Virus record (IMG/VR): IMGVR_UViG_3300024308_000004
Coordinates: 1-38,640 of that record
DNA from: a virus
Taxonomy: Duplodnaviria > Heunggongvirae > Uroviricota > Caudoviricetes
Length of the DNA stretch: 38,640 nucleotides
Reading direction: 5' to 3' (one strand)
Shown here: one piece after another, positions 7,132 to 32,611 of the stretch
How the letters are laid out: every line of letters starts with the position of its first letter
Numbering within the stretch: the stretch's first letter is position 1
The notes under the pieces: model-generated
The model's database searches: none
What the model was told of the DNA's origin: nothing
The model's input: the letters and a program-made list of their open reading frames with translations, nothing else
Program-made: the position numbers and the translations under genes

Positions 7132-7204
7132 AACCTTGAAAGCAAAGCTGAAAGTCAAAAGCATTATACTGGGGTTTTTGAAGAATTAGCCCAGCCCGGG
7201 CCCA
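7132..7204 (-). repeat. Copy A of a bipartite inverted repeat/promoter-like element
   Basis: AGTCAAAAGCATTATACTGG (7153-7172), a 17-nt spacer, then CCCAGCCCGGGCCCA (7190-7204); both blocks are exact reverse complements of blocks at 32543-32594. Confidence 0.9.
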
Positions 7205-7219
7205 AATAAAGAGGGAAAG

Positions 7220-7813
7220 ATGGCAAGACTTACAAAACATGAGTGGCTCGAAGCCGAAGAAATGTACCGGCAGGGCTACACTCAGAAGCAGATTGCGGAG
7301 AAATTTGGGTGCCGGATTGAAACCGTTTCCCTTCACATGAATAAGGTGAAGGTAAAGGGTGGTGAATCGGTCGATGTAGTTAAACAAGAGATGGAAGCGG
7401 CAGTCAACCGGAAGGTAAAAGAGTTCGCCGACAAGCGAGCGTCCCGGCAAATCGACGCCAAAGAACGTTTCCATACCCTGACAACCACCATGATTTCCCT
7501 GTTTGTCAAGGAAATCAAAGACGCTCAGGCAGCCGGTAAGTCTTTAAGCTCCTTATCTGGTCATGCGAAAGCCCTTAAAGAAGCTATGTTCGCCTTACAG
7601 CTTGCCCGCAAAGAAGCGTATGTCATCCTGGATATCAAGGAAGACGATAACGGTGATGAAATGCCGGACCTGATGGTGTCGACCATGTCTGCGGAAGAAG
7701 AAGACCGTATTCGTGGTGCCAAGGGTATTTCGGAAGAAGATGAAGAAATGGAAGATATCCATGAAATGGAAGAGAACGCACTGGAGGACGAATTGAATGC
7801 CGGCCAAGAGTAA
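7220..7813 (+). CDS. terS: Terminase small subunit
   Basis: N-terminal HTH (EMYRQGYTQKQIAEKFGCRIETVS), helical core, acidic tail; overlaps TerL. Confidence 0.75.
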   Translation: MARLTKHEWLEAEEMYRQGYTQKQIAEKFGCRIETVSLHMNKVKVKGGESVDVVKQEMEAAVNRKVKEFADKRASRQIDAKERFHTLTTTMISLFVKEIKDAQAAGKSLSSLSGHAKALKEAMFALQLARKEAYVILDIKEDDNGDEMPDLMVSTMSAEEEDRIRGAKGISEEDEEMEDIHEMEENALEDELNAGQE

Positions 7814-9122
7814 GTCTCGGATTGGTGCCAACCCGAGCGTGGTCAAAATCGATGAAGGCGTACTGGCTGTGGACGGGGGTAAAACCTTCGTCCACACGCT
7901 GCATCGTGCCCAATCGGAAATTTACGCGGACAATACCCGCTTTAAGGTAGTCGTTGCGGGTCGTCGTTTCGGCAAGACAACGGTTTCTATTCAGCACCTC
8001 ATTAAAGTCGCAACCCGGAAGAAGAACGCCCAGGTCTGGTACGTGGCTCCCACGTACGGCATGGCACGAGAAATCGTCTGGACGAAGCTGAAAATGGCGT
8101 TACCTCAACAGTGGGTGGCTAAGACCCATGAATCCTTGCTGAAAATCACCTTGAAGAACGGCTCGGTGATTTCACTCAAGGGCGCTGACCGTCCGGATAC
8201 GTTGCGAGGCGTGGGCTTGGACTACATCGTCCTAGACGAGTTCCAGGACATGCGTAAGGGTGTGTGGGATGAAGTCTTGCGACCGACGTTAGCAACCACC
8301 GGTGGTGGTGCGCTGTTCATCGGTACGCCCAAGTCGTTCAACCATTTCCATAAGCTGTACGAACGTGGTCAGGCCCAGCGCAATCGCAAGAAGCCTGAAT
8401 GGAAGTCGTGGCAGTACCCGACGATTACTTCACCATTCGTGCCGACGGCAGAAGTTGAGCAAGCCCGGCAGGACTTGGACCCGCGCACATTCCGACAGGA
8501 ATTCGAGGCGACGTTTGAGACCATGTCCGGTCGTGTTTACTACCCATTCGACCGTGACAAGCACGTCGGCGACTACCCGTTCAACCCGAAATTACCAATC
8601 TGGATCGGTCAAGACTTCAACATTGACCCTATGTCCAGCGTTATCATTCAGCCGCAACCCAACGGTGAACTGTGGGTCGTAGATGAATTGGTGCTGTTTA
8701 ACTCCAACGTCACGGAAGTCTGTGATGCCCTGGAGCAACGGTACTGGCGCTACCTGAAACAGATTGAGATTTTCCCTGACCCGGCAGGTAATTCCAGGTC
8801 GCACGCCCGTGGTGAGAGCGCCCTGGACATTTTCCGAGCCCGTGGCTTCACGAAGATTTACTACCGCAAGAAGCACCCCTTCGTACAGGATCGTGTCAAT
8901 GCCGTGAATGCCAAGTTGTATTCTGCCACTGGTCAGATTACACTTAGGATCGACCGAAAATGTCGGAACATGATTGAGTCCTTTGAGCAGGTGATCTACA
9001 AAGAGGGCTCTACCGAAATTGATAAGTCCCTTAACAAGGAACACATCGCTGACGCCTTGGGCTATGCGATTGAATACCGGTTCCCGACGAAGGATTACAA
9101 GATGATGGGCTTGAAGATTTAA
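7797..9122 (+). CDS. terL: Terminase large subunit
   Basis: Walker A AGRRFGKT, Walker B IVLDEFQ, IGTPKSFNHF, RNase H-like GQDFNIDP and HIADALGY. Confidence 0.97.
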   Translation: MPAKSKSRIGANPSVVKIDEGVLAVDGGKTFVHTLHRAQSEIYADNTRFKVVVAGRRFGKTTVSIQHLIKVATRKKNAQVWYVAPTYGMAREIVWTKLKMALPQQWVAKTHESLLKITLKNGSVISLKGADRPDTLRGVGLDYIVLDEFQDMRKGVWDEVLRPTLATTGGGALFIGTPKSFNHFHKLYERGQAQRNRKKPEWKSWQYPTITSPFVPTAEVEQARQDLDPRTFRQEFEATFETMSGRVYYPFDRDKHVGDYPFNPKLPIWIGQDFNIDPMSSVIIQPQPNGELWVVDELVLFNSNVTEVCDALEQRYWRYLKQIEIFPDPAGNSRSHARGESALDIFRARGFTKIYYRKKHPFVQDRVNAVNAKLYSATGQITLRIDRKCRNMIESFEQVIYKEGSTEIDKSLNKEHIADALGYAIEYRFPTKDYKMMGLKI

Positions 9123-9132
9123 GGAACCCTTA

Positions 9133-10779
9133 ATGGCCAAGAAGAAACCCTCTGCGGCTACTCCAAAGTTGGAGTATCGCAACCTTTTAAATCGTAAGCA
9201 CCCTGAGTATGACAAGAAGCTGCCGCACTGGCACTTCTTGAACATGACCTATGAATCGCCCCGTGAGTGGTTCAAGCAAAACCTGTTCAGGTTCAACCGC
9301 GAAGGTGAAGAAACCTTCGCTGGTCGCTTGAAGCGTGCCTATCGTTTCAACCATACCCGCGAAGTCGTAGACCTGGTCAACAAGTACCTGTTCAAGACCG
9401 TGCCGCAGCGCAACCCGGATGTGCCGGAAGAAGTTCAGCGTTTCCGTCAGTCGGCTACTCTGTCGGGTCTGACCGTGGAACAGTTTGAGCGTCAGGTCGC
9501 CCGCGAAGCCAGTATTTACGGTCGTGTGTACGTGGTGCTGGACAACAATGTCGCGGCAGATACGATTGTGACCAAGGCTGACGAGAAGGCTGGCAACGTC
9601 AAGTTGTACGCCTACATCGTCACGCCCGAACATATGCGCGATTGTGGTTACGACAAGGACGGCAACTACGAATGGATCCTGATCGAAGAAAAGGCCCGTG
9701 ACGATTCCAACCCGTTCGACGCCTCTTGCACGATCTACTCCAAGTTCCGTCTGTGGACCAAGGACAAGTGGTTCCTGTTTACTACCCGTAACGAGGAATC
9801 CAAGGACGGCCCTGTTGTCGAACTGGAAGAATCGGGCACACATGGTCTGGGCGTTGTTCCGGTTATCAAGTGTGACCATATCGAATCGGACAACAAGTAC
9901 AGCGTTCCGGCTCTGATCGAAGACATTGCCTATCTGGATCGTGCGGTTGCGAACTACTGTTCCAACCTGGACCAGATCATCAATGACCAGACTTTCAGCC
10001 AGCTGGTTATTCCAGCCGGTGGTCTGTTGGGTGGTGTTAGCTCGACCCTGAGTATGGTTGACGGTAATGATCCGGACGTTCTGAAAAAGACTCGGGACAT
10101 TATTGCTCTGGGTACGGGTCAGATTCTGCTGTACGACGGTGAAGGTGGTTCGGCTCCGAGCTACATTTCGCCTGATCCGAAGCAAGCCGAAATGATCGTT
10201 ACTGCCATCAAGCAAATCATCAACGAGATTTACCACACCGTTGGTCTGTCGGGTGAACGCACCAAGCAGGACAACTCCATGGGTATCGATAACTCGTCCG
10301 GTGTTGCCAAGGCTTTCGACTTTGAGCGCGTTAACGCCTTACTGTCTGCCAAGGCAAATGCTATGCAGGCTTTCAGTAATCGTCTGGAAAACATGGTACA
10401 AGTTTGGCACGGTAAGGATCCGAATAAGCTGGATCCGACCAAGGTTGACGTGGAATACTCCACCAACTTCGACGTGCGAAGCCTGAATGATGACCTGTCG
10501 ATTGCCAATCAGTTCATGCTGCTGGGTGTTCCGATGGAACTGCGTCAGTATCAGGCGAAAGAAATGGTTGATAAGATTTGGCCGATGGCTAAAGACGCTG
10601 ATTTGCAGAAGGTTCGTGCCGCTATTGATGGCTGGGAAGACCCGCTTGAAAAGGCAATGAAGATGGCTGGTACACAAAATTCAGAAAATCCTAAAAAAGG
10701 TGTTGACAAGAAGGATCCAATGAATAAGAATACCAGCCAAGGCTTCCCTGGGACTTTACCCAAGGCAGCACAAAAGTGA
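9133..10779 (+). CDS. Portal protein
   Basis: Directly follows TerL, 548 aa, with SPP1-like portal features (GTHGLGVVPV, SGVAKAFDFE, VEYSTNFDV). Confidence 0.9.
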   Translation: MAKKKPSAATPKLEYRNLLNRKHPEYDKKLPHWHFLNMTYESPREWFKQNLFRFNREGEETFAGRLKRAYRFNHTREVVDLVNKYLFKTVPQRNPDVPEEVQRFRQSATLSGLTVEQFERQVAREASIYGRVYVVLDNNVAADTIVTKADEKAGNVKLYAYIVTPEHMRDCGYDKDGNYEWILIEEKARDDSNPFDASCTIYSKFRLWTKDKWFLFTTRNEESKDGPVVELEESGTHGLGVVPVIKCDHIESDNKYSVPALIEDIAYLDRAVANYCSNLDQIINDQTFSQLVIPAGGLLGGVSSTLSMVDGNDPDVLKKTRDIIALGTGQILLYDGEGGSAPSYISPDPKQAEMIVTAIKQIINEIYHTVGLSGERTKQDNSMGIDNSSGVAKAFDFERVNALLSAKANAMQAFSNRLENMVQVWHGKDPNKLDPTKVDVEYSTNFDVRSLNDDLSIANQFMLLGVPMELRQYQAKEMVDKIWPMAKDADLQKVRAAIDGWEDPLEKAMKMAGTQNSENPKKGVDKKDPMNKNTSQGFPGTLPKAAQK

Positions 10780-10834
10780 GGTCAAGCGATAGACCTCAGA
10801 TACGCCAAGAGATAGGCTAACTAAAGGAATCCCT

Positions 10835-11677
10835 ATGCCAGAAGATTTGACACCTGAACAGATTGCCGCTAATGAGAAAGCCGCTGCGGAAGCAAAGGCC
10901 AAGGCAGACGCGGAAGCTGCTGAACGGGAAAAGAATAAGAACAACATCACCGACCGCGAGGCTGAACTCCTCAAGGAAGTGATGGCGAAGAAGGAAGCTG
11001 CCAAGACTGCTACAGCAGCCGCAGAAGCCGCAAAGAAGGAAGCCGAGGAACTGGCTGCCCGACTGAAGGCTTATGACGGTATTGATTTGGAAGAAATCAA
11101 GGGACTGCTGAAGGAAAAGCAAGATCGTGAGCAGGCTGAACTGGAGAAGCGTGGTGAATTTGACCGTGTTAAGGAGCAAATCATTGCGGCGCACAAGCAG
11201 GAAATTGAAACCGTTCGCGGTGAATTGAATCCTAAGCTGGAAGCGCTGACAAGCGAAGTTGCCAAGCGCGATCAGGTCATTACTGAACTGACCATTGGTC
11301 GTTCGTTCTCTGAGTCGCCCTTCATTCGTGATTCGCTGGCACTGCCGGTGTCGAAGGCCCGTATTCTGTACGGTAGCCACTTTGAACTGACTGACGGTAA
11401 GGTCGTTGCATATGACAAGCCTGCTGGTTCTGCGAACCGCACCCCGCTTGTTGATGGTAACGGTGACCCGCTTGCGTTCGATAAGGCTATCGAAAAGATC
11501 GTGGATAGTGACCCGGATCGGGATAATCTGTTGAAGTCCAAGATTCGTAGTGGTGCTGGTTCGGATAACGACCACGGCATCGATACGAAGGATAAGAATA
11601 AGAAGCCTCTCTCGGGTATGGAGCGTATCCTTGCTGGAATCAAGGAAAACGGTATGCCAGAGTTGAAGGTGGTCTAA
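10835..11677 (+). CDS. Capsid scaffolding protein
   Basis: Ala/Glu/Lys coiled coil between portal and capsid; C-terminal NLLKSKIRSGAGS and MERILAG typical of scaffolds. Confidence 0.82.
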   Translation: MPEDLTPEQIAANEKAAAEAKAKADAEAAEREKNKNNITDREAELLKEVMAKKEAAKTATAAAEAAKKEAEELAARLKAYDGIDLEEIKGLLKEKQDREQAELEKRGEFDRVKEQIIAAHKQEIETVRGELNPKLEALTSEVAKRDQVITELTIGRSFSESPFIRDSLALPVSKARILYGSHFELTDGKVVAYDKPAGSANRTPLVDGNGDPLAFDKAIEKIVDSDPDRDNLLKSKIRSGAGSDNDHGIDTKDKNKKPLSGMERILAGIKENGMPELKVV

Positions 11678-11719
11678 TTAAGTAGTACCATCCCATACCT
11701 ATTTAAGGAGTAATACAAG

Positions 11720-12625
11720 ATGCCTCTGTTACGTGTAGAAGCCGAGAAGCTGTCGAATAACGACCTGCTGCGCGGCGTGATTGAAGAAGTGATCGACAAG
11801 GAAGACCTCTTTGCCGTTCTGCCGTTCGTCAAGACCGACGGTAAGGCTTACGTCTACAACCGTGAGAACGGCGTGGTCGAAGCTGAGTTCCTGGACCCGA
11901 ACGACATTGTGCCGGAAGGTGCTGCGAAGTTCACCGAGGTCGTGACCAAGGTTCGCATCCTGGCGCACGACGTTGACGTGGACAAGTTCCTGTCGGGTAC
12001 TATGTCGGACACCACTGAGCAGGTTGCTGTGCAGCTGGCTGCCAAGGCCAAGGGCCTGGCCCGCAAGTACCGTAAGACCCTGGTCATCGGTGACAACACC
12101 GCTAACCCGAAGGAATTCGACGGTCTCCAGGTGCTGGTTGCTGCCAACGCCGCTCAGAACATCAGTGCCGGTACCAACGGTGGCGCGCTGACCCTGGGCC
12201 TGCTGGACGAACTGCTGGACTCCGTGCCGAATGGCGCTGACGTGCTGCTGATGCGTCCGGGCACCATCCGTGCCTTCCGCGCTCTGGTTCGCCAGGCCGG
12301 TGGTAACACCGCTGTGGACCTGATGATCGAGGACTTCGGTCGTCCGATGCTGACCCACAACGGCGTGCCGATCCTGGAGAACGAGTTCATCCCGGTCGCT
12401 GCTCAGGGTACCGCAACCGACACCTGCTCGGTCTATGCGATCCGCCTGAACGAGACTGACGGTCTGCATGGTCTGTATGCCGGTCCGAATGCTGGTATGG
12501 TGGTCGAGCCGATCGGCACCGTCCAGAACAAGGACGCCTTCCGCTGGCGCGTGAAGTGGTATGCCGGTCTGGCCCTCAAGTCGACCCGTTCGGCTAGCCG
12601 CCTCGTCGGTATCACCAACGTCTAA
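11720..12625 (+). CDS. Major capsid protein (HK97 fold)
   Basis: LFAVLPF, YVYNRE, NPKEFDGL, FRWRVKWYAGLALKS motifs; strong RBS TAAGGAG; strong codon bias; terminator follows. Confidence 0.93.
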   Translation: MPLLRVEAEKLSNNDLLRGVIEEVIDKEDLFAVLPFVKTDGKAYVYNRENGVVEAEFLDPNDIVPEGAAKFTEVVTKVRILAHDVDVDKFLSGTMSDTTEQVAVQLAAKAKGLARKYRKTLVIGDNTANPKEFDGLQVLVAANAAQNISAGTNGGALTLGLLDELLDSVPNGADVLLMRPGTIRAFRALVRQAGGNTAVDLMIEDFGRPMLTHNGVPILENEFIPVAAQGTATDTCSVYAIRLNETDGLHGLYAGPNAGMVVEPIGTVQNKDAFRWRVKWYAGLALKSTRSASRLVGITNV

Positions 12626-12650
12626 TCGCAAGGTTAGTTAAACCCCGAAG

Positions 12651-12683
12651 GGGCCTGGGTAATCCCCAGGCCCTTTTCTTTTT
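12651..12683 (+). terminator. Rho-independent terminator after the major capsid gene
   Basis: GGGCCTGGG-TAATC-CCCAGGCCC followed by TTTTCTTTTT. Confidence 0.9.
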
Positions 12684-12700
12684 GCATAAGGAGTTACAAA

Positions 12701-13129
12701 ATGGCACAGCGTTTAAAGATTGTTGAAAAGGGTTGGGAAACTTTCTCGGATTACTTCGGTGGCTTTAAGTTCACCAACGGTCTGTCTGATGAAGCCATTC
12801 CGAGTGCAGACGCCCAGCGCCTTGGTTCGTGGATCCGCTTTGAAGGCGTAGATGATGAAGCTCAGGTTGGTGAAGGCGTAGTGCAGGTTGCTCTGACGGA
12901 CACCAAGGCTGATGTGGTTATCGCTGCTGGTGACAAAGAGCCTGAAACCGTGAGCGTTGAACAGGCTGCCGAAGCTGCCGTCGAAGCAACCAAGTACACC
13001 GTCGAAGAACTGGAAGCCCTGGCTGATCAGGGTGGTATCGCCGCTCTGCGTAAGATTGGTGACAAGATCGGCGTTAAGGGTCGTGGCATTCCGGAACTGA
13101 TCCGCGAAATCATCCAGAAGCAGGGGTAA
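12701..13129 (+). CDS. Hypothetical head-region protein with C-terminal Rho-N/HeH-like helical motif
   Basis: RBS TAAGGAG; C-terminus YTVEELEALADQGGIAALRKIGDKIGVKGRGIPELIREII. Confidence 0.7.
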   Translation: MAQRLKIVEKGWETFSDYFGGFKFTNGLSDEAIPSADAQRLGSWIRFEGVDDEAQVGEGVVQVALTDTKADVVIAAGDKEPETVSVEQAAEAAVEATKYTVEELEALADQGGIAALRKIGDKIGVKGRGIPELIREIIQKQG

Positions 13130-13135
13130 TCAATC

Positions 13136-13891
13136 ATGGAAAAGTATGTAGTTGGTGATTTGTTCCCGATCCCGTTGGTTGGTGAAGGTCTTCCCGAAGG
13201 TGCTGCTGTCAAGGTTTCGTACCGCTTAATTCGCATGGAACCGCCAGCAGACCCGAATGATCCTAATTCAAACCAAATCGGTGAATTCGAGGTTCAGTAC
13301 AACCCGTCCGGCAAGATCGGTCTGCCGTTCCCTGAAACCGTTGGTCGTCGCAGTATGTGGTTCTGTGGATGGACAATCCAGGACAACATGTCAGGCTTCC
13401 ATAACGGTCAGCAGGAGTTCATGATTGAGGCGTATGAAACGCTGGTGAAGGGTGAGAATTCCTTCCAGGGTTACTACGAAGCCCTCATGCGGACCGAAGA
13501 CATTCCGGGAATCGATGCGTTCAAGGCGCTGTCTAAGCAGGAGCAGATTGCTGCCCTGATTAACAGTTGGCGTCAAATCAGCTCCATGACGTTCATGTCG
13601 AAAGGCAAAATCATTTGGGATATTGGCTCGCTTAATGCCACTGAATTGGATAAACTGGACCCTAGGTTGCTTGAAGCCCTGTGCCTCGCACAGATTCTGG
13701 AAGCAAACGAAACCATGGATTCCAATTCGGCACACAACAAGCGTCTGGAAGGCATCATGTCCGAGACGATTGGCGAAAGCTCGATGATGTTCCGTCCGGG
13801 TAAGGTTGCTTCTAACACGGTCCTGTCGCGTCGTTCGATGGGCTTCTTGCGGAATTATTTGGTCTACACTGCAAGGATTACCCGTGTCTAA
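13136..13891 (+). CDS. Putative head-tail adaptor
   Basis: Position in the neck cluster; C-terminal GIMSETIGESSMMFR resembles adaptor proteins. Confidence 0.6.
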   Translation: MEKYVVGDLFPIPLVGEGLPEGAAVKVSYRLIRMEPPADPNDPNSNQIGEFEVQYNPSGKIGLPFPETVGRRSMWFCGWTIQDNMSGFHNGQQEFMIEAYETLVKGENSFQGYYEALMRTEDIPGIDAFKALSKQEQIAALINSWRQISSMTFMSKGKIIWDIGSLNATELDKLDPRLLEALCLAQILEANETMDSNSAHNKRLEGIMSETIGESSMMFRPGKVASNTVLSRRSMGFLRNYLVYTARITRV

Positions 13892-15736: not shown

Positions 15737-15753
15737 TTGAGGAGTAATAAAGA

Positions 15754-16299: not shown

Positions 16300-16312
16300 T
16301 TGACCCCTAAAC

Positions 16313-16334
16313 GCCCCCAGGTATACCTGGGGGC
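16313..16334. repeat. Perfect 22-bp palindrome (intergenic hairpin)
   Basis: GCCCCCAGGTATACCTGGGGGC between the tail tube and chaperone genes; no U-tract on the plus strand. Confidence 0.85.
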
Positions 16335-16346
16335 TTGGAGTATAAG

Positions 16347-16715: not shown

Positions 16716-16726
16716 CCGCAATCGAT

Positions 16727-17002: not shown

Positions 17003-17011
17003 GGAGGAAAA

Positions 17012-20452: not shown

Positions 20453-20455
20453 ATA

Positions 20456-21495: not shown

Positions 21496-21504
21496 GGAGT
21501 TAAC

Positions 21505-22910: not shown

Positions 22911-25900
22911 GGAGAAGAGGGTGTTGGATTTAAAGAAGACCCCATTAGCTATTGCAGTACAGGGTTACAAAGGTGGTGGCAATCGCACACCGGTCGAAGC
23001 CCCCAACACCCTCAAATCTAGCGCTATCGCCAACCTTCTGGACCTGATTTCGGAAGGTCCCATCGTGGGTCTAGTTGATGGCTTGAAATCGGTGTATCTG
23101 GACGAAACCCCGGTTGAAAGCTCCAACGGTACGCGCAACTTCACCAACTTCCAAATCGACTACCGACTGGGTACTCCCGATCAATCCTTCATTCCGGGGT
23201 TTGATTCGGTCGAGAACGAAATCAGTGTGGGCGTCGAACTGAAACAAGGTTCCCCATTCATTCGCCAGTTCACAAACACCAACCTGGATGCTATCCGGGT
23301 TCGTTTGTCTGTGCCTGCGTTACATAAAACCAATAAAGAGAACGGCGATATTAGCGGCACGTCTGTCGCCTATCAGATTGCCATTTCGACCGACAACGGT
23401 CCGTACAACACCGTCCTGAGTACCTCGTTCAATGGCAAGACCATGAACAAGTACGAGCGCGACCATAAGATTGACCTACCTCCGGCTAATCAGGGCTGGT
23501 CGATTCGCGTTACTCGCTCTACTCCCAACTCAACCGCTTCGGAACTTCAAAACCAGACCTTTGTGGAATCGCTGGTCGAGGTCATTGAAGCCAAGCTGCG
23601 TTACCCGAACAGCGCCGTCATTGGCGTCAAGTTAGAGGCTTCGCAGTTCTCCAACATTCCTGGTCGTGCCTATGACGTGAAGGGTCGTATTATTCGCGTC
23701 CCGACCAATTACAATCCGGAAGACCGTTCGTACTCCGGCGTCTGGGATGGTACGTTCAAGCTGGCTTGGACTGACAATCCGGCGTGGATTTACTACGATC
23801 TGGCTACGCACCCGCGTTACGGTCTGGGTCACCTGATTACCGACCTGCAAGTGAACAAGTGGGTTCTGTACTCGATTGCCCAATACTGTGACGGCTTGGT
23901 GCCTAACGGTCGTGGTGGTCAGGAGCCTCGCTTCACTTGTAACATGTTCCTGCAAAAGCAGGCAGACGCTTACAAGGTGCTGCAAGACCTGGCTACTGTG
24001 TTCCGTGGCATTGCGTACTGGGCTAACGGTGAAATTCAGGCGATCCAAGATCGTCCGGACGAACCGGTGTTCATGTACTCACCTGCCAATGTGATCGCTG
24101 GCAAGTTCGGTTACGAAGGTACTGCGCGCAAGACCCGCTTCAATGTGGCGCTTGTTTCGTGGAACGATCTGACCAACATGGGTCGTGCTGCGATTGAGTA
24201 CGTGGACGATCCGGAAGGTATCGCTCGTTACGGCATTCAGCAGACCGACGTTACGGCTGTTGGTTGTACTTCGCAGGGCCAGGCTCAGCGTGTCGGTCGT
24301 TACCTGCTGGCTACTTCCAAGTACGAAACCCAAAGCGTTACCTTCCAGGTTGGTCTGGACGGTACCCTGGTTGCACCCGGCAAAATCATCTTGATTAACG
24401 ATCCGCTCCGCGCTGGCATTCGCCTGGGTGGTCGTATTACTGCGGGTCCGGATAATCATTCGGTGTTCGTTGATGGCGAACCGGGTCAGATTGAAATCGG
24501 TGATACCCTGCGCGTCGCGCTGCCAGACGGTACGATGGAAAGCCGTACGGTTTCCTCGATCAATGGCAATCAAATCATTGTTTCGGTTGCGTTCACTCAG
24601 GCCCCGCAAGACGATGCTATGTGGTCGGCTGAGCGTGCCAACGTGCAGGCTCTGCGTTACCGTGTGCTGGCTGTGACCGAAGAAGACGGCAAGGTCTTCA
24701 CAATCACTGCTATCCGTCACGTTGAGGGCAAGTTCTCCAACGCTGATAACGGTACCCGTATCGATCCGCCGAAGGAAAACCAGATGACTCCGGTGTCGCA
24801 AGACTCGGTTACCGATCTGGCCCTGACCAGCTACAACGCGGTTGACTACGTTTCTACCTCACAGGTGGTGGTCGCTTCGTGGAACGCTCCTAAGAACGCC
24901 GTTAAGTTCCAGGTGGAGTGGAAGCGTGACTCGGGTCCATGGACCAAGCTGCCCGAAACTGAATTCACCATTGCGGAAATCCGCGATGCGTGGTTTGGTA
25001 CCTACCTGGTTCGTGTTCGTGCGGTTAATTCCAATAACATTCTGTCGCAGCCGGTTACTTCGCAGCCGTTTGTTCTTAGCGCTCTGACCACGCCTCCGGG
25101 CGTCATCGTGGAAATCGATGACAAGGTGCAGGATAACTATGAGGAAATGATCCGCAAGGACGCTGAGAATGCTCAGGCGATTGTGGACGAAGCTCTGGCA
25201 CGTACCCAAAAGGACGTTGAACTGGCTCAAGCGGATGCCGATGAAGCTGCCGCACGCGCTGCTGCGGACGCTCAAGAGGCTATTGATCGCGCTGCTGCCA
25301 TCGACGCTGCTGTGGCTGACCTGGAAGCTCAGATTGCTGCCATTGATATTGGCGATATCCTGGGTGCGGAAAAGTGGGATAAGACCAAGTCTTACCTCGC
25401 TACGACACTGGTCGTGTCCGAAGGTAAGCTGTATCGCGCCAAGATCGACGTTCCGGCTAACACCGAAATCACCAATGCTACTTACTGGGAGCCGATCGGT
25501 AATTACGCTGAACTGGTTGATGAAGTGAAGGCGCAGGCTGCGGTCGTGAGCCAGCACACCACGCAGATCACCAACATCAACGGTCAGATCAGCACCCTCA
25601 GCACCGACATGACGCAGGTTAAGTCGCGTCTGACCAATGCTGAAGGCACAATCACTGCGAATAGCTCGGCTATCAATGCCCTGCAAACCAACGTGACCAA
25701 CCTGAACAACACCGTTACGGCTAATAGCTCGGCTATCACCCAGCTGCAAACCGATATGGTGGACGCAAAACAGGGTATTTCCGCTAACGCTGGTGCTATC
25801 ACCGGCTTGACTACGCGCGTGTCCAATGCTGAGGGTTTGATTACCTCACAGGGTCAGGCGATCACCAAGGTCCAGGCTGGTCTGGGTAACATTGGTGGTG

Positions 25901-28900
25901 ACAACCTGCTGAATAACTCCAGCTTTGAAAACCGTATCAATGACGTGACTCCTCCGACTGGCTGGGGTACGGCTTTTGGTGGCTCTATGGGTTCGATTGT
26001 CCATAGCTACGTTGACTCGCCTCTGGCTGGTTCGACTAAGGCTTGGCGTGTCACTGGTACTGCTGCTTCCGGTGGTGCTACGCAAATCCTGGGTCTGTCC
26101 GAGTCGGTGACTGCGGCGAACCTGATCAAGGCAGTTCCGGGCCAGAAGCATACCCTGAGCGCCTTCATGCGTGGTACGGCTACCAATGCTACGGCTCTGC
26201 TGATTATCTGGTACTACAACAGTGCCGGTACGTCGGTTGCTACGCATGTCAGTCCCGCCGTCACGCTGGATGCAGCCAACTTCAATCGCTTTACCTTTAC
26301 GGTTCCGACTGCTGCTCCTGCAAACACTGTCGAGGTTCGTGCCCAGCTTCGCCTGCAAACGACTGTGGCTGGCAATTACACCTTTGAAATTGACAACGCC
26401 CAGCTGCAATTAGGCGAAGTTGCTACCAACTGGATGCCGAGCGCTCTGGAAGTCGCGCAGCAGGCTGCAAATACCGCGTCTGCCCTCACTTCGCTGACTG
26501 CTACCGTTACACAACAGGGCAACACCATTACATCGCAGGGTAACGCGATTACCAATCTGCAAACCGCAGTGGCCGGTAAGGCTGACGCTCAGGCGTTGGT
26601 TGATCTGACCTCGCGCGTGGTTGTGACTGAGAATTCGATCACCAGCCTGAATAGCTCGGTGACCACGTTGAATTCCAACATGAGCAACATTGGTGGTGAC
26701 AACCTGCTGTCAAACAGCTCGTTTGAGCAGGGCGAACCTTCGGGCCTGAACGCTGGCCCGGGGTGGAACCTGGAGCGTATCCGGGGCGACATACCCTGCG
26801 CGTTCTCCCGGGTTCCGTCGATGCTGACCGGTGGTGGTAATGCTCTGCGTCTGGAGTGGACTGCTGCCAATGCAGAAGATTGGGCAGGCGTGAATCGTGC
26901 GGGTCCAGGTGCGGGCTATATGCGTATCAAGCCTCTGACCGATTATGTGCTGTCCACTTGGGTTCGCGGTACAGCGGGTACTCGCTTCCAGATTTACGTT
27001 GTGTGGTTCAACGAGACTGGTGGTACCGGTATGGGTACGATCACCTCGCAGTTTGTCTTTGCCACTGGCGAATGGCAGCGTCTGATTCTTCCTGCTCGTT
27101 CGCCGAGTGGCGAAGTAAAGCGCGCCCGCGCTTATGTGGGCCGTCAGTTCGCGGTCACTCCGGGCAACTACTGGATGGAAGTTGATAACGTCATGCTCCA
27201 GGAGGGTCTGGTTGCTACCGCTTGGACTCCGAGTGCCAACGAAGTGGCTACGCTGGCTAACGCAAGCGCGTCCGCGATTACTTCGCTGACCACTCGCGTC
27301 ACCAATGCAGAAGGCACCATCACAACTCAGGGCGGCCAAATCACCACGCTGAACAACAGCGTGAATGGCGTCGCCATGAACGGCGCAAACTGGATGTTCA
27401 ACTCCAACTTTGCGACCGGTCTGGAATGGTGGAGCGTATCTGCTGGCGCTGGTAACTCGATTGTTTGGGGTGCAGCTGCCGGTCAGACCGGTGGTGGTGT
27501 TACCTTCACTCGCGGCACTGGTACCTCTCAGGCGCCGTATGTGTTAGGTCGTAATGGTTTGTGGATGCCGAGTCAGACTGATAAGCCGCGCAACTTCCGT
27601 GCGGTCATTATCGCCAAACTGACCACTGGTTCTTCGGCGACCGTTACTGCCCGTATGCGCGTGCGGACAACCAATACATCGGACGGTGGTACTATCGGCG
27701 AGTCGAACAACGACCAGCAGATCACCATTACCGATACCAATTGGAAGCGGTACGTCTTCAATTTCGGCCCGGCTCTGAACACCCGTAACGAGTTCATGTT
27801 CCAGTTCTGGGTTGGTACAGAAGGGACTGCTGTGACCTTCGACCGCATCGAGGTCTACGACATGACCGAGCAGCTGGTGGGCGAAGCGAACGCTGCGGCT
27901 ACTACCGCTCTGACAACCCGCGTGACTGCGGCTGAGGGTGCTATTACCTCGACCTCGCAGAACATCACCCAACTGTCCAACAGCATCTCCCTGATTCAGG
28001 GTGGTTCTTCGTCCATCTGGCAACAGGGTACGTTTGAACAATGGGCTGATGGTACTGTGCTGGCTGGCAATCAGGCTGGTGGTACTAGCGCTACGGTCCG
28101 TGCGGCTGCCGCTCGTCAGGGTGTGCGGGGTATGGAGTGGAACGTTACCGCCAACACCTCGCCGACCACCAACGCTGATTTGTATATGGGCAATTTCGTT
28201 TCGATCAGTGGTGCTCGTAAGATTTATGTGGAGTTCTGGGCAAAGCTGGCTGATACCAGTATTGATGCGCCAACTGGTACGTTTGGTGTTGGTATCAATA
28301 CCCAGTCTGAGACCGGTGCTAATAACTGGCCGCGTACCAATACAGCCATCAACACTCTGTCCAAGACTGAATGGACCAAGATCAGTGGCTATCTGACCAC
28401 AAATGTCAACACCGCGCGTATGCGTATGTTCCTGTCGATCCCGGGTACGGGTTCGTCGGGCAACCGTCAGGTCGGCACCGTGATCTGGGTTGATGACATT
28501 GTTTGGATGGATGTGACCGACGCTGTGAACGCTCAGGCTTCTACAGATGCTCTGTCTACCGCACTGTCGTCGCTGACCAGCACTGTGACCACGCAAGGCA
28601 ACACCATTGCCTCGCAGGGTACGTCGATCACCAACTTGGATAACAAGCTACTTGGCGTGCGTAATCTGGGTGGTAACCTGATTCCCAACGCAGACTTCCA
28701 ATACAACCCGTTCATTCAGAACTGGTGGATGGCTGATGCTGGTGGTACAGGTAACGATATCCAGTGGGGCGCGGCTTACGGCGACGGCAAGTCCGGCGTT
28801 CGTATCACCCGTGGTGGCACTGGCGCTCCGTTCATTGCAACTGGTAACACCGTTAAGTCTGGCAATCAGGCTGCGGGTTGGTTCCCAGCTGTCGCGGGTA

Positions 28901-30714
28901 GCGTCTTCCGCGTCACTGCGCGTGCCAAGTTGTGGATGAGTGGTTCGGGTAACGTTCTGTTCCGTCTGTTCCGTAAGCTGGAAGATGGTTCGGTAAACGC
29001 CTATAACGACATTTACATCCCGGGTGGTGGTGCAACAAATGCTTGGGCAGATTACAACTTGGATTTCCCGGCATGTCCGGCGAATACAATTGGCGTCTTC
29101 CTGCGCGTTTATGTTCACCCGAACGCTGGTACTGTGGACTTCGACAAGATCGAGTTGCGGAACGTGACAGGTGAAGTTGCTGCCAACGCTGCCGCATCGG
29201 CTGTGAGTTCGCTCACTACCCGCGTGACGGCTGCGGAAGGTTCGATCACGTCGCAAGGCACTCAGATTACCTCCCTGCAAAACAGCATTGCTGGCGTGCG
29301 TGGTGGTAAGAACATGATTTCCAATGGTCTGTTTGACATGGGTGGTGATGTGGGTTGGACGATTGCGAGTGGTACTTGGACGTTCCCGGCAGAAGGTCGT
29401 AACGGCAGCTTGTGTGCCAAGCGTGTGGGTCCGGGCAACACCACACCTCATACGCTGCGTGCCAATGCTGACGCTTCGACGCCTGTAACTGCTGGCAAGA
29501 CCTACCGCATTAGTTGCTGGTACAAGAACGATGCGGCTTGGAACGGCACACCGGGCAACAGCAAGATGCGTTTGGCTGATCAGGGTGGTAACCTGCTGAA
29601 CACCGTAGGTAACATTTGGTTCGCACCGAACAAAACCGAGTGGACGTATACAGAAGGTTTGTATACGGTTCCTTCCGCGAGTAGCACCGTCACCGGTCTG
29701 CGTTTGACCATCGTGCTGGATAATGCGGCTGGTACCATTTGGATTGACGATGTGTGGTTAGAGGAAGTGTCGGGTGAAGTTGCCAACAGTTCTGCGATCA
29801 CTACACTGCAATCGACTGTGACCCAGCAAGGGAACACGCTGACTGGACAAGCCTCGCAGATCACTTCGCTGACCACGAGCATCGCTGGCAAGGCTGACGC
29901 CTCCATCGTGACCTCGCTGGAAACCAAGGTGAATGCGAACATGAATGGTGGTGGTAATCTGCTGGTCAATGCAACGTTCGCAACCGATATTAGCGGCTGG
30001 GGATTTGCTTGGAACCCAGGCGGTTGGTGGCTGAATCGTGACACAGCGGGCGCTGATTGGACGCCGTACGGTGGTCACACCATCGGTATGAACAAGGCTG
30101 GTGTGCTTGCGCAGGGCAATTACGGCGTGGTGTATCCATCCGTACCGATCCCGGCTACTGCTGGTAAGCGTTACATGTTCTCCTGCAAAACTGCTGGTCA
30201 TCGTAGTCGTCGGATGATTAGTATGAAGTTCATGGACGTTAACGGTAATAACCTTGCCGAACCACAGTCTACTTGGACCGATAGCGCTCAAACCGGCAGT
30301 AATGGTGGTAAGGCGTTGTCTAACTGGAACGATCAGGTGGTCACGGCTATCGCTCCGACAGGAACAGTGGCAGTTGTTGCTGGCTTCTGGGCTGACGGTC
30401 GTGGTGAAAGCGATCCGTACTGCTGGTACACGCAGCCGATGTTGGAAGAGGTGCCGTTGGACAAGACAACACCAAGTCCATATGCCCCCGGTGGTGCGGA
30501 TGCCTACGCCAGCTACTCGGTGTATACTGACGTTAACGGTTACATTGCCGGTATTCAGTTGAAGAACAGCGGCACTCAGTCCAGCTTCACCATCCTTGCG
30601 GACCAGTTCCGTATTGTGAAGCCGGGCAGTAACCTTCGGACGGAGTATTCCGACGGCAACTGGCGAGCTTACGACGGTAACGGTGTGTTGCGAGTCCGAA
30701 TGGGTGTTTGGTAA
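22903..30714 (+). CDS. Central tail fibre/host-specificity protein J with seven carbohydrate-binding-like modules
   Basis: gpJ N-terminus (LISEGPI, YRLGT, WTDNPAWI, EPRFTCN), FN3 region, coiled coil, seven GG-NL...F-initiated beta-sandwich modules, C-terminal DUF1983-like region (YIAGIQL...ADQFRI...LRVRMG). The real start may be GTG/TTG near 22921-22924. Confidence 0.93.
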   Translation: MNKEKRVLDLKKTPLAIAVQGYKGGGNRTPVEAPNTLKSSAIANLLDLISEGPIVGLVDGLKSVYLDETPVESSNGTRNFTNFQIDYRLGTPDQSFIPGFDSVENEISVGVELKQGSPFIRQFTNTNLDAIRVRLSVPALHKTNKENGDISGTSVAYQIAISTDNGPYNTVLSTSFNGKTMNKYERDHKIDLPPANQGWSIRVTRSTPNSTASELQNQTFVESLVEVIEAKLRYPNSAVIGVKLEASQFSNIPGRAYDVKGRIIRVPTNYNPEDRSYSGVWDGTFKLAWTDNPAWIYYDLATHPRYGLGHLITDLQVNKWVLYSIAQYCDGLVPNGRGGQEPRFTCNMFLQKQADAYKVLQDLATVFRGIAYWANGEIQAIQDRPDEPVFMYSPANVIAGKFGYEGTARKTRFNVALVSWNDLTNMGRAAIEYVDDPEGIARYGIQQTDVTAVGCTSQGQAQRVGRYLLATSKYETQSVTFQVGLDGTLVAPGKIILINDPLRAGIRLGGRITAGPDNHSVFVDGEPGQIEIGDTLRVALPDGTMESRTVSSINGNQIIVSVAFTQAPQDDAMWSAERANVQALRYRVLAVTEEDGKVFTITAIRHVEGKFSNADNGTRIDPPKENQMTPVSQDSVTDLALTSYNAVDYVSTSQVVVASWNAPKNAVKFQVEWKRDSGPWTKLPETEFTIAEIRDAWFGTYLVRVRAVNSNNILSQPVTSQPFVLSALTTPPGVIVEIDDKVQDNYEEMIRKDAENAQAIVDEALARTQKDVELAQADADEAAARAAADAQEAIDRAAAIDAAVADLEAQIAAIDIGDILGAEKWDKTKSYLATTLVVSEGKLYRAKIDVPANTEITNATYWEPIGNYAELVDEVKAQAAVVSQHTTQITNINGQISTLSTDMTQVKSRLTNAEGTITANSSAINALQTNVTNLNNTVTANSSAITQLQTDMVDAKQGISANAGAITGLTTRVSNAEGLITSQGQAITKVQAGLGNIGGDNLLNNSSFENRINDVTPPTGWGTAFGGSMGSIVHSYVDSPLAGSTKAWRVTGTAASGGATQILGLSESVTAANLIKAVPGQKHTLSAFMRGTATNATALLIIWYYNSAGTSVATHVSPAVTLDAANFNRFTFTVPTAAPANTVEVRAQLRLQTTVAGNYTFEIDNAQLQLGEVATNWMPSALEVAQQAANTASALTSLTATVTQQGNTITSQGNAITNLQTAVAGKADAQALVDLTSRVVVTENSITSLNSSVTTLNSNMSNIGGDNLLSNSSFEQGEPSGLNAGPGWNLERIRGDIPCAFSRVPSMLTGGGNALRLEWTAANAEDWAGVNRAGPGAGYMRIKPLTDYVLSTWVRGTAGTRFQIYVVWFNETGGTGMGTITSQFVFATGEWQRLILPARSPSGEVKRARAYVGRQFAVTPGNYWMEVDNVMLQEGLVATAWTPSANEVATLANASASAITSLTTRVTNAEGTITTQGGQITTLNNSVNGVAMNGANWMFNSNFATGLEWWSVSAGAGNSIVWGAAAGQTGGGVTFTRGTGTSQAPYVLGRNGLWMPSQTDKPRNFRAVIIAKLTTGSSATVTARMRVRTTNTSDGGTIGESNNDQQITITDTNWKRYVFNFGPALNTRNEFMFQFWVGTEGTAVTFDRIEVYDMTEQLVGEANAAATTALTTRVTAAEGAITSTSQNITQLSNSISLIQGGSSSIWQQGTFEQWADGTVLAGNQAGGTSATVRAAAARQGVRGMEWNVTANTSPTTNADLYMGNFVSISGARKIYVEFWAKLADTSIDAPTGTFGVGINTQSETGANNWPRTNTAINTLSKTEWTKISGYLTTNVNTARMRMFLSIPGTGSSGNRQVGTVIWVDDIVWMDVTDAVNAQASTDALSTALSSLTSTVTTQGNTIASQGTSITNLDNKLLGVRNLGGNLIPNADFQYNPFIQNWWMADAGGTGNDIQWGAAYGDGKSGVRITRGGTGAPFIATGNTVKSGNQAAGWFPAVAGSVFRVTARAKLWMSGSGNVLFRLFRKLEDGSVNAYNDIYIPGGGATNAWADYNLDFPACPANTIGVFLRVYVHPNAGTVDFDKIELRNVTGEVAANAAASAVSSLTTRVTAAEGSITSQGTQITSLQNSIAGVRGGKNMISNGLFDMGGDVGWTIASGTWTFPAEGRNGSLCAKRVGPGNTTPHTLRANADASTPVTAGKTYRISCWYKNDAAWNGTPGNSKMRLADQGGNLLNTVGNIWFAPNKTEWTYTEGLYTVPSASSTVTGLRLTIVLDNAAGTIWIDDVWLEEVSGEVANSSAITTLQSTVTQQGNTLTGQASQITSLTTSIAGKADASIVTSLETKVNANMNGGGNLLVNATFATDISGWGFAWNPGGWWLNRDTAGADWTPYGGHTIGMNKAGVLAQGNYGVVYPSVPIPATAGKRYMFSCKTAGHRSRRMISMKFMDVNGNNLAEPQSTWTDSAQTGSNGGKALSNWNDQVVTAIAPTGTVAVVAGFWADGRGESDPYCWYTQPMLEEVPLDKTTPSPYAPGGADAYASYSVYTDVNGYIAGIQLKNSGTQSSFTILADQFRIVKPGSNLRTEYSDGNWRAYDGNGVLRVRMGVW

Positions 30715-30720
30715 CATAAC

Positions 30721-30740
30721 GGGGCTCCCTAGGGAGCCCC
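30721..30740. repeat. Perfect 20-bp palindrome, possible weak terminator/processing hairpin
   Basis: GGGGCTCCCTAGGGAGCCCC followed by AACTTTT, directly after J. Confidence 0.8.
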
Positions 30741-30758
30741 AACTTTTAGGAGGTTAAT

Positions 30759-31034
30759 ATGGGTGTAGGAATCGAAGTCTATAATGCCGACGGGTCCTTG
30801 CAGTTCGACATTGGTACCCGTGTGTTCCGAGCGCTGGTCGTTGATTTCACAACCGGTGGCTCAGCGGGCTCGATCACCGTGGACAACAGTATTGGAACGA
30901 TTGTCCCACAGGTCAACGTTGACGGTCAGGAAGGCACCAGTAACGATGGCCCAGTGAACGAAATAACGGTAAATGGTGGTACTGTGTCTTGGGGTTCAGG
31001 CTCTGGACAGTCAGGCTCCATCCTAGTCTACTAA
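30759..31034 (+). CDS. Small tail-associated protein
   Basis: RBS AGGAGG; N-terminal GIEVYNADGSLQFD motif typical of post-J accessory tail proteins. Confidence 0.72.
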   Translation: MGVGIEVYNADGSLQFDIGTRVFRALVVDFTTGGSAGSITVDNSIGTIVPQVNVDGQEGTSNDGPVNEITVNGGTVSWGSGSGQSGSILVY

Positions 31035-31044
31035 GGAGTAAACC

Positions 31045-31740
31045 ATGCCAGCAGGCATTCAAGTAATCAACACGGCAGGCACTGTCACCATTGACGAGAA
31101 CTACCAAAATCTGGCACTACGAGCGTCGGGCGGTATGTACTTTTCTGAAAACGGTACTCAGTTGGCGTCATTCAATTATGGCTTGACTCTCAGAAAACCG
31201 CTTTGTGCGATCCGAGTTACCGGTCAACCTGCTGGTGTTGCCAGTTGCAGTACGTCGGGTGGCGTGACCAACGTGCGAATCACCGGCATGGCTGGTGCCA
31301 GCGTCACCTGGTATGTATTTGATGTGCCGTATGCCGTCTCAAATGCCGGTTTGCAAATCTTCCGGGGTGACGGTACGTTGTGTTTCGACGCTGGTAACAA
31401 GTACGCGCGCGTAGTGGATTACTGGACAGCCAGTCAGCGCAACCAGTGGGAAGGCATGACCAAGTATTACACTGACGGGCGCGTGTACGCTTCGGCATTC
31501 TTGTCGTCTGCCGAACGTAAGCAAAACCAATTCACCGCAAACTTGTGCGGTCGACAGCGGTACCGTCAAAACATCACTTGGTACCGTCAAATGTGCCAGA
31601 TCACTTCCGGCACAAACAACACCACGTACAGTTTCCCAGCGTGGCGTGCTGATGGTGAATATGGCGACTGTGAAGTATTTCGTGGGAGTTTCTCAAAATA
31701 CTCCACAGCTATCGCCATGATCGACGTTACCGGTTACTGA
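31045..31740 (+). CDS. Tail-associated protein (DUF6453-like)
   Basis: RBS AAGGAG; motif GIQVINTAGTVTIDEN repeated internally as GLQIFRGDGTLCFDAG. Confidence 0.7.
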   Translation: MPAGIQVINTAGTVTIDENYQNLALRASGGMYFSENGTQLASFNYGLTLRKPLCAIRVTGQPAGVASCSTSGGVTNVRITGMAGASVTWYVFDVPYAVSNAGLQIFRGDGTLCFDAGNKYARVVDYWTASQRNQWEGMTKYYTDGRVYASAFLSSAERKQNQFTANLCGRQRYRQNITWYRQMCQITSGTNNTTYSFPAWRADGEYGDCEVFRGSFSKYSTAIAMIDVTGY

Positions 31741-32027
31741 CAGCCACGCTTCGTGCGGCTGTAACGGGCGTCGATGTTCATTGCGCCGTTCTTGGACTTG
31801 AACGGGTCTTCGTTGCGGATGTAATCGCGCAGATGACGGTCGAGTTCGGGGGTCAGTGCCTCGCACAGCTTGTCGCGTGCAACGCAGGACTCCTGATCGC
31901 CTCGTTCGCAACCACGACCGGCGTCGATGAAGTTTCCGATGAAGGCGTATTCCTTGGTGAACTCCTCGCGCCCCTGGGCGCTGAAAGCTGCGAGGGCGAG
32001 AGTAGCGGCAATGAGGATCTTTTTCAT
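31734..32027 (-). CDS. Small secreted Cys-containing protein (moron)
   Basis: MKKILIAATLALAAFSAQG signal peptide, RBS AGGAG, TATAAT upstream; antisense to the flanking late genes; 3' end overlaps the upstream gene by 7 bp. Confidence 0.8.
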   Translation of the reverse strand: MKKILIAATLALAAFSAQGREEFTKEYAFIGNFIDAGRGCERGDQESCVARDKLCEALTPELDRHLRDYIRNEDPFKSKNGAMNIDARYSRTKRGCQ

Positions 32028-32088
32028 GATGGACTTCTCCTGTGTGTGCGTATATTATAAACGCTAGAAATCTCCCCTCCGCAGATGC

Positions 32089-32107
32089 CCGACAAGTTGA
32101 TTGTCGG
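32089..32107. promoter_or_regulatory. Operator-like inverted repeat in a divergent promoter gap
   Basis: CCGACAA-GTTGA-TTGTCGG immediately before TAGAAT (32109-32114, plus strand). Confidence 0.45.
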
Positions 32108-32127
32108 CTAGAATAAAGGTAGTATCC

Positions 32128-32352
32128 ATGTCAACCCCTAACCCTTATGAGGTGCCCATGCAACTTCGTCTTGATTCCCGTCAGGAGTTTTCATTCAACC
32201 AAGGCAAGGTCCAGCTGACCTTCGTCCGTGTGGATGGCACTGACCCCATGCAGTTCAGTTACTTTGACGAGCCGGCGTCTGCCTTCGCTCTGTCAGTTGG
32301 CTCGGTCTATGAAATGACCCTGACCAAGATTACACCTCCGCCTGCTGAATAA
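32128..32352 (+). CDS. Hypothetical protein (74 aa)
   Basis: ATG 32128 after AAAGGT; phage-like codon usage. Confidence 0.65.
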   Translation: MSTPNPYEVPMQLRLDSRQEFSFNQGKVQLTFVRVDGTDPMQFSYFDEPASAFALSVGSVYEMTLTKITPPPAE

Positions 32353-32375
32353 ACCCCAAATCCAAGAGGCCGAAA

Positions 32376-32540
32376 ATGAAAGGACAAGAGAACGATCCGA
32401 TCATCAATGAGGTATCTCTGGCTGCGATTACCGGGGTTAACGCCCCGGATGGTTTAACCATTGTGATTGGTAAACCGCCCAAGCCTGAGAAACTTATCAA
32501 GCGTACCTTTAAAAACAAGGTGCGTAAGAAATCTACATAA
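32376..32540 (+). CDS. Small basic hypothetical protein (54 aa, not in the ORF track)
   Basis: MKGQENDPIINEVSLAAITGVNAPDGLTIVIGKPPKPEKLIKRTFKNKVRKKST; RBS GAGG; fills the gap exactly. Confidence 0.6.
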   Translation: MKGQENDPIINEVSLAAITGVNAPDGLTIVIGKPPKPEKLIKRTFKNKVRKKST

Positions 32541-32542
32541 TC

Positions 32543-32611
32543 TGGGCCCGGGCTGGGTTTACTGAGCGTAAACACCAGTATAATGCTTTTGACTCTAACG
32601 CTTACAAGGTT
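32543..32611 (+). repeat. Copy B of the bipartite element; probable promoter of the lysis operon
   Basis: TGGGCCCGGGCTGGG-N17-CCAGTATAATGCTTTTGACT with a perfect TATAAT, 25 bp before ATG 32620. Confidence 0.88.

Follow-up and report, generated by a model that had tools for sequence, protein, structure and literature searches.

The window described here, a stretch of 38,640 nt, comprises bases 1-38640 of the 109,675-bp virus record IMGVR_UViG_3300024308_000004, whose ends overlap by 127 bp, and belongs to the 109.5-kb genome of a Stenotrophomonas phage. The genome carries a bipartite element consisting of a 15-nt GC box (TGGGCCCGGGCTGGG), a free spacer of 17 nt and a 20-nt block (CCAGTATAATGCTTTTGACT) that contains a perfect TATAAT. 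The copies of this element probably constitute a family of co-regulated promoters that require a dedicated factor. This reading is carried by the sequence anatomy, copy number and synteny of the element, by purifying selection on its blocks and by its gene context, all of which are directly observed. The nearest records are the Stenotrophomonas phages ANB28 and BUCTxx99 (~82-92% identity), followed by Xanthomonas phage JGB6 at ~70% identity, with Nickievirus and Rhizobium phages as more distant kin.

Two copies lie within the window, copy B on the plus strand at 32543-32594 and copy A on the minus strand at 7204-7153, exactly as reported in a preliminary description of the window. Both blocks are identical between the copies, and the spacers, each 17 nt long, agree at 8/17 positions only. 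In copy B, the GC box (block 1, 32543-32557) begins 2 nt past the stop codon of the last open reading frame (ORF) of the virion module (32376-32540). The spacer extends over 32558-32574, and block 2 (32575-32594) contains the perfect -10 at 32579-32584, with a predicted start at G32591. In copy A, block 1 (7190-7204) lies 15 nt upstream of the start codon of the terminase gene terS, on the opposite strand, followed by the spacer (7173-7189) and block 2 (7153-7172), whose TATAAT at 7168-7163 predicts leftward transcription. The third block of the preliminary description is present as well, matching at 11/12 positions between GCTTACAAGGTT (32600-32611) and GCTTTCAAGGTT (7143-7132), at an unequal offset from block 2 of 5 nt in copy B and 9 nt in copy A. 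In copy B it includes the ribosome-binding site AAGG (32606-32609) of the ORF starting at 32620; in copy A it resembles a ribosome-binding site, with no start codon or credible minus-strand gene behind it.

The pair formed by copies A and B is the longest inverted repeat in the window. The 20-mer finds no match in 100 shuffles with up to 3 mismatches allowed. With 3 mismatches allowed, the 15-mer could by itself turn up by chance, but its exact occurrence in phase with the 20-mer is improbable. The preliminary description saw two copies bracketing the virion module, and the inverted pair is real, but it is not the whole set. The whole-genome scan locates a third copy, copy C, on the plus strand at genome 74709-74760, with 34/35 block positions in agreement, an identical GC box, a 17-nt spacer, a changed last base of block 2 and no block 3. 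The apparent bracketing is therefore an effect of viewing a single window. The element is the only word of at least 15 nt that occurs three times in the genome. A degenerate fourth copy, copy D, is located at genome ~99,300-99,375 and consists of CCCAGCCCAGC, 27 nt, CCCAGTATATAAT and then the same leader word TTTTAACAC. Its CCCAGCCCAGC, placed further upstream, is inverted. Copy D faces an ORF in a gene-poor control region and is orthologous to JGB6 82826-82864.

If TATAAT occupies -12 to -7, the G of GCTTTTGAC becomes the start, block 2 spans -16 to +4 and block 1 spans -48 to -34. The 8-bp palindrome within block 1, GCCCGGGC, has its centre at -41.5, and the core kept across the clade, GGGCCC, occupies -47 to -42. 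TATAAT is perfect in copies A, B and C and in all their orthologues, as expected of a canonical sigma-70 -10, with a conserved CCAG directly ahead of it and a conserved GCTTTTGAC over the discriminator and start site. No TTGACA-like -35 is found 16-18 nt upstream, the hexamers at 17 nt being GGTTTA, GGCTAA and GGTAAA, and no extended -10 of the TGn type precedes the hexamer, where the bases read CAG. A scan with the sigma-70 consensus calls none of the copies, because they offer neither a usable -35 nor a TGn. A conserved site abuts or overlaps the -35 region at a fixed phase, as in promoters served by class II activators. The copies do not resemble promoters of the extracytoplasmic function (ECF) type, having no AAC-type -35 and a -10 region that reads CCAGTATAAT, with CGTA in the JGB6 copies only; a two-domain sigma could nonetheless fit the two-block geometry with its 17-nt spacer. 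Elsewhere in the genome, promoter-like sites have a GTATAAT(G) core and a TGCAA word ~19 nt upstream in place of the GC box, and strict TTGACA-N17-TATAAT promoters are almost absent from it.

In the proposed mechanism, RNA polymerase would read block 2 through TATAAT, CCAG and GCTTTTGAC, and the GC box would be read by a dedicated factor that holds polymerase at the fixed 17-nt phase. All copies would be expected to switch on together because the same factor would read each box. Two other placements of the promoter were considered and set aside. Reading in the opposite direction, with TATACT as -10, would turn two copies out of three into antisense promoters and make the GC box part of the transcript, which is less parsimonious. 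A second, tandem promoter with the leader word TTAACA as -35 fits copy C only.

Conservation separates the blocks sharply from the spacer. BUCTxx99 and ANB28 have copies A, B and C at syntenic sites with unchanged orientation. Six further orthologous sites come from virome and metagenome collections scanned for exact words, on contigs L122 and L130 for copy A, L123, L128 and L131 for copy B and L129 for copy C. The tally was taken over distinct orthologous sequences (copy A from the genome itself and L122; copy B from the genome itself, L131 and L123; copy C from the genome itself, BUCTxx99, ANB28 and L129), leaving out copy B of BUCTxx99/ANB28. Block columns vary in 0/105 cases vs 19/51 spacer columns (Fisher p=4e-11). 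When copies A, B and C of the genome itself are compared, 1/35 block columns and 15/17 spacer columns vary. The spacer of copy A is changed at 9/17 positions in L122 with both blocks exact, and that of copy B varies at 3/17 columns among the genome itself, L131 and L123. Block 1 is invariant in copy A of BUCTxx99, ANB28, L122 and L130 and in copy B of L123 and L131. In the 12 copies of the Stenotrophomonas clade with an intact block 1, the box is positioned exactly 17 nt from block 2. Copy B of BUCTxx99/ANB28 retains TGGGCCC (twice) and CCAGTATAATGCTTTT, and the 3' half of its block 1 is gone.

JGB6 carries recognisable versions at the syntenic positions of A, B and C and a fourth, D', all with a block of the CC(A)GTATAAT type. 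Its A', B' and D' versions keep GGGCCC 27-29 nt upstream of TATAAT, and C' has GGGCGC, closer in. Four of the six GGGCCC hexamers of JGB6 lie at element loci; the hexamer is otherwise under-represented there. Phage nickie has no multi-copy GC-box family, only a single diverged site resembling copy A. Scanning the full genome and its relatives for the motif, a check proposed in the preliminary description, thus adds a third copy and finds the family kept in BUCTxx99, ANB28, JGB6 and the six contigs. The proposal made there, of an element recognised by protein rather than a recent duplication, agrees with the invariant blocks and drifting spacers of the orthologues: judged from these alignments, the element comprises two putative protein-contact blocks held at a fixed distance by purifying selection. 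Soil contigs with no relation to the phage (L124-127, L132-136) contain the exact block 2 19-mer as well, with no GC box, and these matches look like chance occurrences or ordinary bacterial promoters.

Two phage proteins are candidates for reading the element. The first is the 87-aa product of the plus-strand gene at 6828-7091, next to copy A, for which a winged helix had been proposed in the preliminary description. Its predicted fold is indeed a winged helix of PadR/MarR type, modelled by AlphaFold2 (AF2) with a pLDDT of 86.6, matched by Foldseek to PadR/LmrR/MarR with TM 0.72-0.77 and assigned to phrog_900. The gene is translationally coupled to the preceding gene and is real, and on the strength of the modelled fold its product is a candidate binder of the GC box and activator. 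The second, 235 aa long, is encoded at genome 46700-47407 by the phage's only gene of the sigma-70 family; it comprises region 2, then an acidic linker, and at the C-terminus a helix-turn-helix which to the eye resembles region 4.2. It scores 25.6 bits with Pfam Sigma70_r2 vs a curated cut-off of 24 and matches phrog_351 'RNA polymerase sigma factor' at 1e-8; nearly all of its best PDB matches are SigA region 2. Its identity is 97% in BUCTxx99 and ANB28 and ~55-60% in JGB6. The gene after it encodes a Cys-rich 198-aa protein (phrog_3616). Both candidate genes are present in all four family-bearing genomes, which are not independent samples, and neither is detected in nickie, where the family is missing. 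A third kind of reader, an activator of the Mor/C type, found no match with Pfam Mor.

The likeliest arrangement, tentatively favoured at somewhat less than an even chance, would be host sigma-70 holoenzyme assisted by a phage-encoded activator in class II style. Direct reading by the sigma-like protein, with no activator and with the two blocks in the roles of -35-type and -10-type elements, as for two-domain sigmas of the ECF type, is an unlikely variant of the promoter reading, and its chance is counted inside that of the family as a whole. The phage does possess this one divergent candidate sigma, two invariant blocks with a fixed free spacer of 17 nt form the classic sigma geometry, copies of JGB6 show CCGTATAAT with a CGTA, as is typical of -10 elements in ECF promoters, and the gene follows the family in its distribution. 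The position of block 1 speaks against it. The part kept clade-wide is GGGCCC at -47 to -42 only, one helical turn too far upstream for region 4, and the 3' half, where the -35 would be, is not kept in JGB6 or in copy B of BUCTxx99/ANB28. Copy B also precedes the sigma gene on the same strand, so that the gene would need another promoter for its initial expression. The genes that phage sigmas serve are usually those of the virion, and no sense-direction copy is present in the virion module. Host sigma-70 with an activator is favoured because the perfect TATAAT is the housekeeping -10 consensus, because what block 1 retains clade-wide is a helical turn further upstream than the region 4 site, and because the sigma gene is itself downstream of copy B.

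The surroundings of copies B and C fit the starts of transcription units. Copy B had been read as an activator-type promoter of the lysis operon; its position ahead of the lysis cassette stands, and a factor-dependent promoter with a -10 only is how its sequence would be read. It stands 29 nt ahead of the ORF with the AAGG ribosome-binding site, the first of a plus-strand series at 32620-34561. This ORF, from 32620, encodes a 90-aa soluble protein and is followed by a 129-aa holin-like protein with 2-3 transmembrane segments by hydropathy (32892-33281), an SLT transglycosylase, the endolysin (33281-33946; Pfam SLT, 3.8e-11), an i-spanin-like protein with an N-terminal transmembrane segment (within ORF 33793-34395) and an o-spanin lipoprotein with a lipobox (34298-34561); a phrog match to an Rz-like spanin falls in the same series. 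No terminator is predicted after the lysis cassette up to the window end, and past the cassette lie PhoH and then DnaB, primase and polymerase genes. Copy B would drive the cassette and the genes after it. Copy C is located 67 nt past a terminator with a 13-bp stem (genome 74613-74642), with the next ORF ~70 nt on, and would restart transcription past this strong terminator. The label of a shared late switch, offered in the preliminary description, is not assignable to the family: the virion module has no sense-direction copy, and copies B and C also lead into genes of replication and nucleotide metabolism.

Copy A points away from terS, as already described. From its predicted start (the G at ~7156, 7 nt past the -10), the winged-helix gene's stop codon is reached 65 nt further on. 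Copy A would fire leftward to yield a non-coding RNA antisense to the winged-helix gene, and this RNA would meet head-on any rightward transcription entering terS (7220-7813, plus strand; Pfam Terminase_5/HTH_7), the first gene of the virion module. No plus-strand GTATAAT occurs between 3.8 and 32.5 kb, which leaves terS with no family promoter in the sense direction, and no intrinsic terminator is seen between the winged-helix gene and terS. On both grounds, the virion genes are probably reached by read-through from the operon of ParB-ParB-ABC and winged-helix genes that begins near 3.85 kb. In every relative, L122 with its altered spacer included, copy A retains its orientation and both blocks; in JGB6, A' has the same orientation, and in nickie a homologous leftward TATACTGCTTGT with a CTTAACAAC leader lies in the same gap. 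Because orientation and blocks persist in this way across relatives, copy A appears to be functional as it stands. The minus-strand ORF 7081-6809, considered as a gene for copy A, shares its wobble positions with the plus-strand gene, is Ser/Arg-rich, has no family match and does not keep its start in JGB6; it is a shadow ORF. An additional GGGCCC at 7082-7087, in the last codons of the winged-helix gene (M-G-P-stop) and 116 bp from the copy A box, is kept in BUCTxx99, ANB28 and JGB6 and could be a second binding site or a plain coding constraint.

Within this family the single genuine peculiarity is the conserved copy A with its backward direction of firing. In nickie (L038) and more distant relatives, including the IMG/VR records L052, L062, L067, L069, L071 and L076, a strong terminator hairpin with a T-run lies ~20-40 nt before terS. 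Several IMG/VR relatives also carry a plus-strand TTGACA-N17 promoter within an inverted repeat, AAGTCA-N4-TGACTT, ahead of the hairpin, which suggests attenuation or antitermination control of their late genes. A rather improbable extension of the promoter reading makes the GC box a two-way switch. The bound phage protein would recruit polymerase downstream; at copy A it would also block rightward entry into the virion module, and at copy B, given its place directly behind the last virion ORF, late transcription would in addition be brought to a stop. On this view copy A would stand in for the intrinsic terminator found just before terS in nickie-like phages and in more remote relatives, and morphogenesis would be timed by promoter collision and by antisense RNA against the gene of copy A's own regulator.

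Other explanations dispense with transcription. Copies A and B were offered in the preliminary description as recombination sites that could flip the 25-kb morphogenesis block; a site-specific invertase or homologous recombination would have to carry out the flip. The exact 15-nt and 20-nt blocks are indeed inverted and 25.3 kb apart, and the L122 copy A spacer, being partly copy-B-like, indicates that copies occasionally recombine. This spacer and its upstream flank resemble copy B of the same sample (L123; metagenome 3300011223), with the run TTGCTGAG and AATC before the box in common, and the likeness suggests, at the level of sequence, occasional gene conversion between inverted promoter copies, not a switch. 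The third copy lies in direct orientation with copy B, 42 kb away. Whole-genome alignments show BUCTxx99, ANB28 and JGB6 colinear with the genome across 7.2-32.5 kb, and both flanks are parental in all contigs that span copy A (L122, L130) or copy B (L123, L128, L131). Inversion systems have two and only two inverted crossover sites and display both orientations in nature; here there are three copies, and the three isolates and five contigs show one orientation. Pfam Resolvase and Phage_integrase find no match in the six frames of the whole genome and do score in control genomes, and an inversion would deprive terS and the virion genes of the one source of rightward transcription able to reach them. 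Inversion of the virion block is rejected, its probability being close to nil, and the idea of an invertible virion module is corrected accordingly.

Equally remote is the explanation that the copies are neutral repeats, recently duplicated or gene-converted and free of function. The third block common to copies A and B at 11/12 positions points to common descent of a cassette of ~80 nt, and L122 bears the signs of conversion already described. Among orthologues at ~82-92% genome identity, however, all 105/105 block columns are kept and 19/51 spacer columns are changed, and the core survives to ~70% genome identity in JGB6. The neutral reading is contradicted by this pattern; conversion alone would make the spacers uniform too. 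A little less remote, and still very improbable, is that the blocks bind a protein that organises or packages DNA (such as the two ParB-domain proteins encoded at 3827-5232, or TerS), with an incidental TATAAT and no transcription start. Copy A adjoins the conserved ParB-ParB-ABC ATPase module and terS, and the short palindromes of block 1 (GGGCCC and GCCCGGGC) are of the type that dimeric proteins bind. Some linear plasmid-prophages have promoters at their dispersed centromere-like sites. Binding alone, however, needs neither a perfect TATAAT, nor a fixed 17-nt phase, nor 10 nt conserved precisely across discriminator and start site. Copies B and C stand exactly at the starts of co-directional gene arrays, C just past a terminator, and the -10 region is common to other promoter-like sites in the genome.

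Several points weigh against the promoter family as proposed. Promoter activity, start sites and timing are deduced from sequence, as is the choice of candidate factors and what copy A would do. The -10 is common to the GGTATAAT promoters with TGCAA, which points to one sigma for both classes without saying which. Block 1 has no clean dyad; JGB6 and copy B of BUCTxx99/ANB28 keep the GGGCCC core only, at a distance varying by 1-2 nt, and the copies may owe some of their identity to gene conversion. No product gene lies behind copy A. Its RNA has no Rfam match even at E<=5, no conserved structure (the consensus fold amounts to -4.7 kcal/mol with 0 compensatory pairs) and no conserved terminator, the hairpin at 6748-6734 losing its T-run in BUCTxx99 and ANB28. 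The output of copy A thus looks pointless unless antisense transcription or interference is the function. In the literature, no transcriptome was found for this phage clade and nothing on Nickievirus promoters, and the ANB28 paper contains no promoter or transcription analysis.

The promoter family is set in a genome with a largely uniform direction of reading. The plus strand holds nearly all genes, from ~3.85 kb round to ~104 kb, and an 8-kb minus-strand block, helicase through to DHFR, reads leftward from 3.8 kb. In the divergent gap between the helicase block and the ParB operon (3807-3880), AGTATAAAGC is found on the minus strand at 3845-3836, 24 nt ahead of the helicase start; it is 1 base off the family -10 region, and the plus strand there reads TATACT. 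Restriction-type palindromes are strongly avoided in the genome, as seen in CTGCAG (0 observed vs 35.7 expected), CCGCGG (0 vs 21.4) and GAGCTC (0 vs 6.6). GGGCCC is moderately depleted (12 vs 20.7 expected), and 3/12 of its occurrences are GC boxes. The segment 25016-32890, which includes the distal tail-fibre region, small ORFs, promoter B and the first ORF behind it, does not align to BUCTxx99/ANB28, its flanks being 85-87% identical to them, and it looks like a swapped host-range module. The virion operon also contains GC-rich hairpins at 12650-12683, 16313-16334 and 30721-30740, which are internal punctuation of the operon. The first follows the major capsid gene and has a T-run, as a terminator or attenuator would; the second follows the gene at ~16.3 kb and the third the gene of the 2603-aa tail fibre.

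In conclusion, the element would represent a new family of factor-dependent promoters, familiar in kind, from a phage clade that is so far unstudied, and it provides a testable first map of transcription control for these ~108-kb siphophages of Stenotrophomonas and Xanthomonas. One member of the clade, ANB28, is part of an experimental cocktail against S. maltophilia. The family could be used to find the phage regulator, to define temporal classes and to build a phage-inducible reporter, and its backward copy before terS offers a concrete case for antisense or collision control of late genes.

Among known systems, the PeSL cassettes of T4-type phages are similar in being repeated promoter cassettes between modules with signs of recombination between copies. 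They differ in that the variable host-range segment here ends off the repeats (25,016 and 32,890), with no shuffling seen at the repeats. The lambda oop promoter, opposite cII, and P22 sar, opposite ant, likewise lie just downstream of a small regulator gene and fire into its 3' end. Those promoters make short RNAs with a defined terminator, whereas no conserved terminator or RNA structure is found here, and the promoter in this phage is a copy of one that serves ordinary operons. In Gram-positive siphophages with late activators of the RinA/ArpU/LtrC group (RinA: PMC3152322), a small DNA-binding gene also stands directly upstream of terS, with a conserved promoter in the gap. Their promoter faces terS and drives the late operon, whereas the one described here faces the regulator gene, away from terS; the fold is PadR-like, not RinA-like, and the host is Gram-negative.

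The middle promoters of T4, in which a MotA box is combined with a sigma-70 -10 by 'sigma appropriation', also form a multi-copy class with a phage box in place of the -35 and the host -10 kept. The MotA box lies at -30 vs -47 to -42 for the conserved core here, and the comparison is conceptual only. The family differs from the activator-dependent promoters of phage Mu: no Mor/C-family protein is encoded in this phage (no match with Pfam Mor), the box sequence is unrelated, the candidate activator is a PadR-type winged helix, and one copy is antisense with no gene behind it. The likeness to the Mu middle promoter Pm (Mor) and late promoters (C), and to class II CRP/FNR promoters, lies in the architecture: a sigma-70-type -10 with no recognisable -35, a short, GC-rich and partly dyad site over the -35 region, centred at ~-41.5 to -44, and several copies that switch together.

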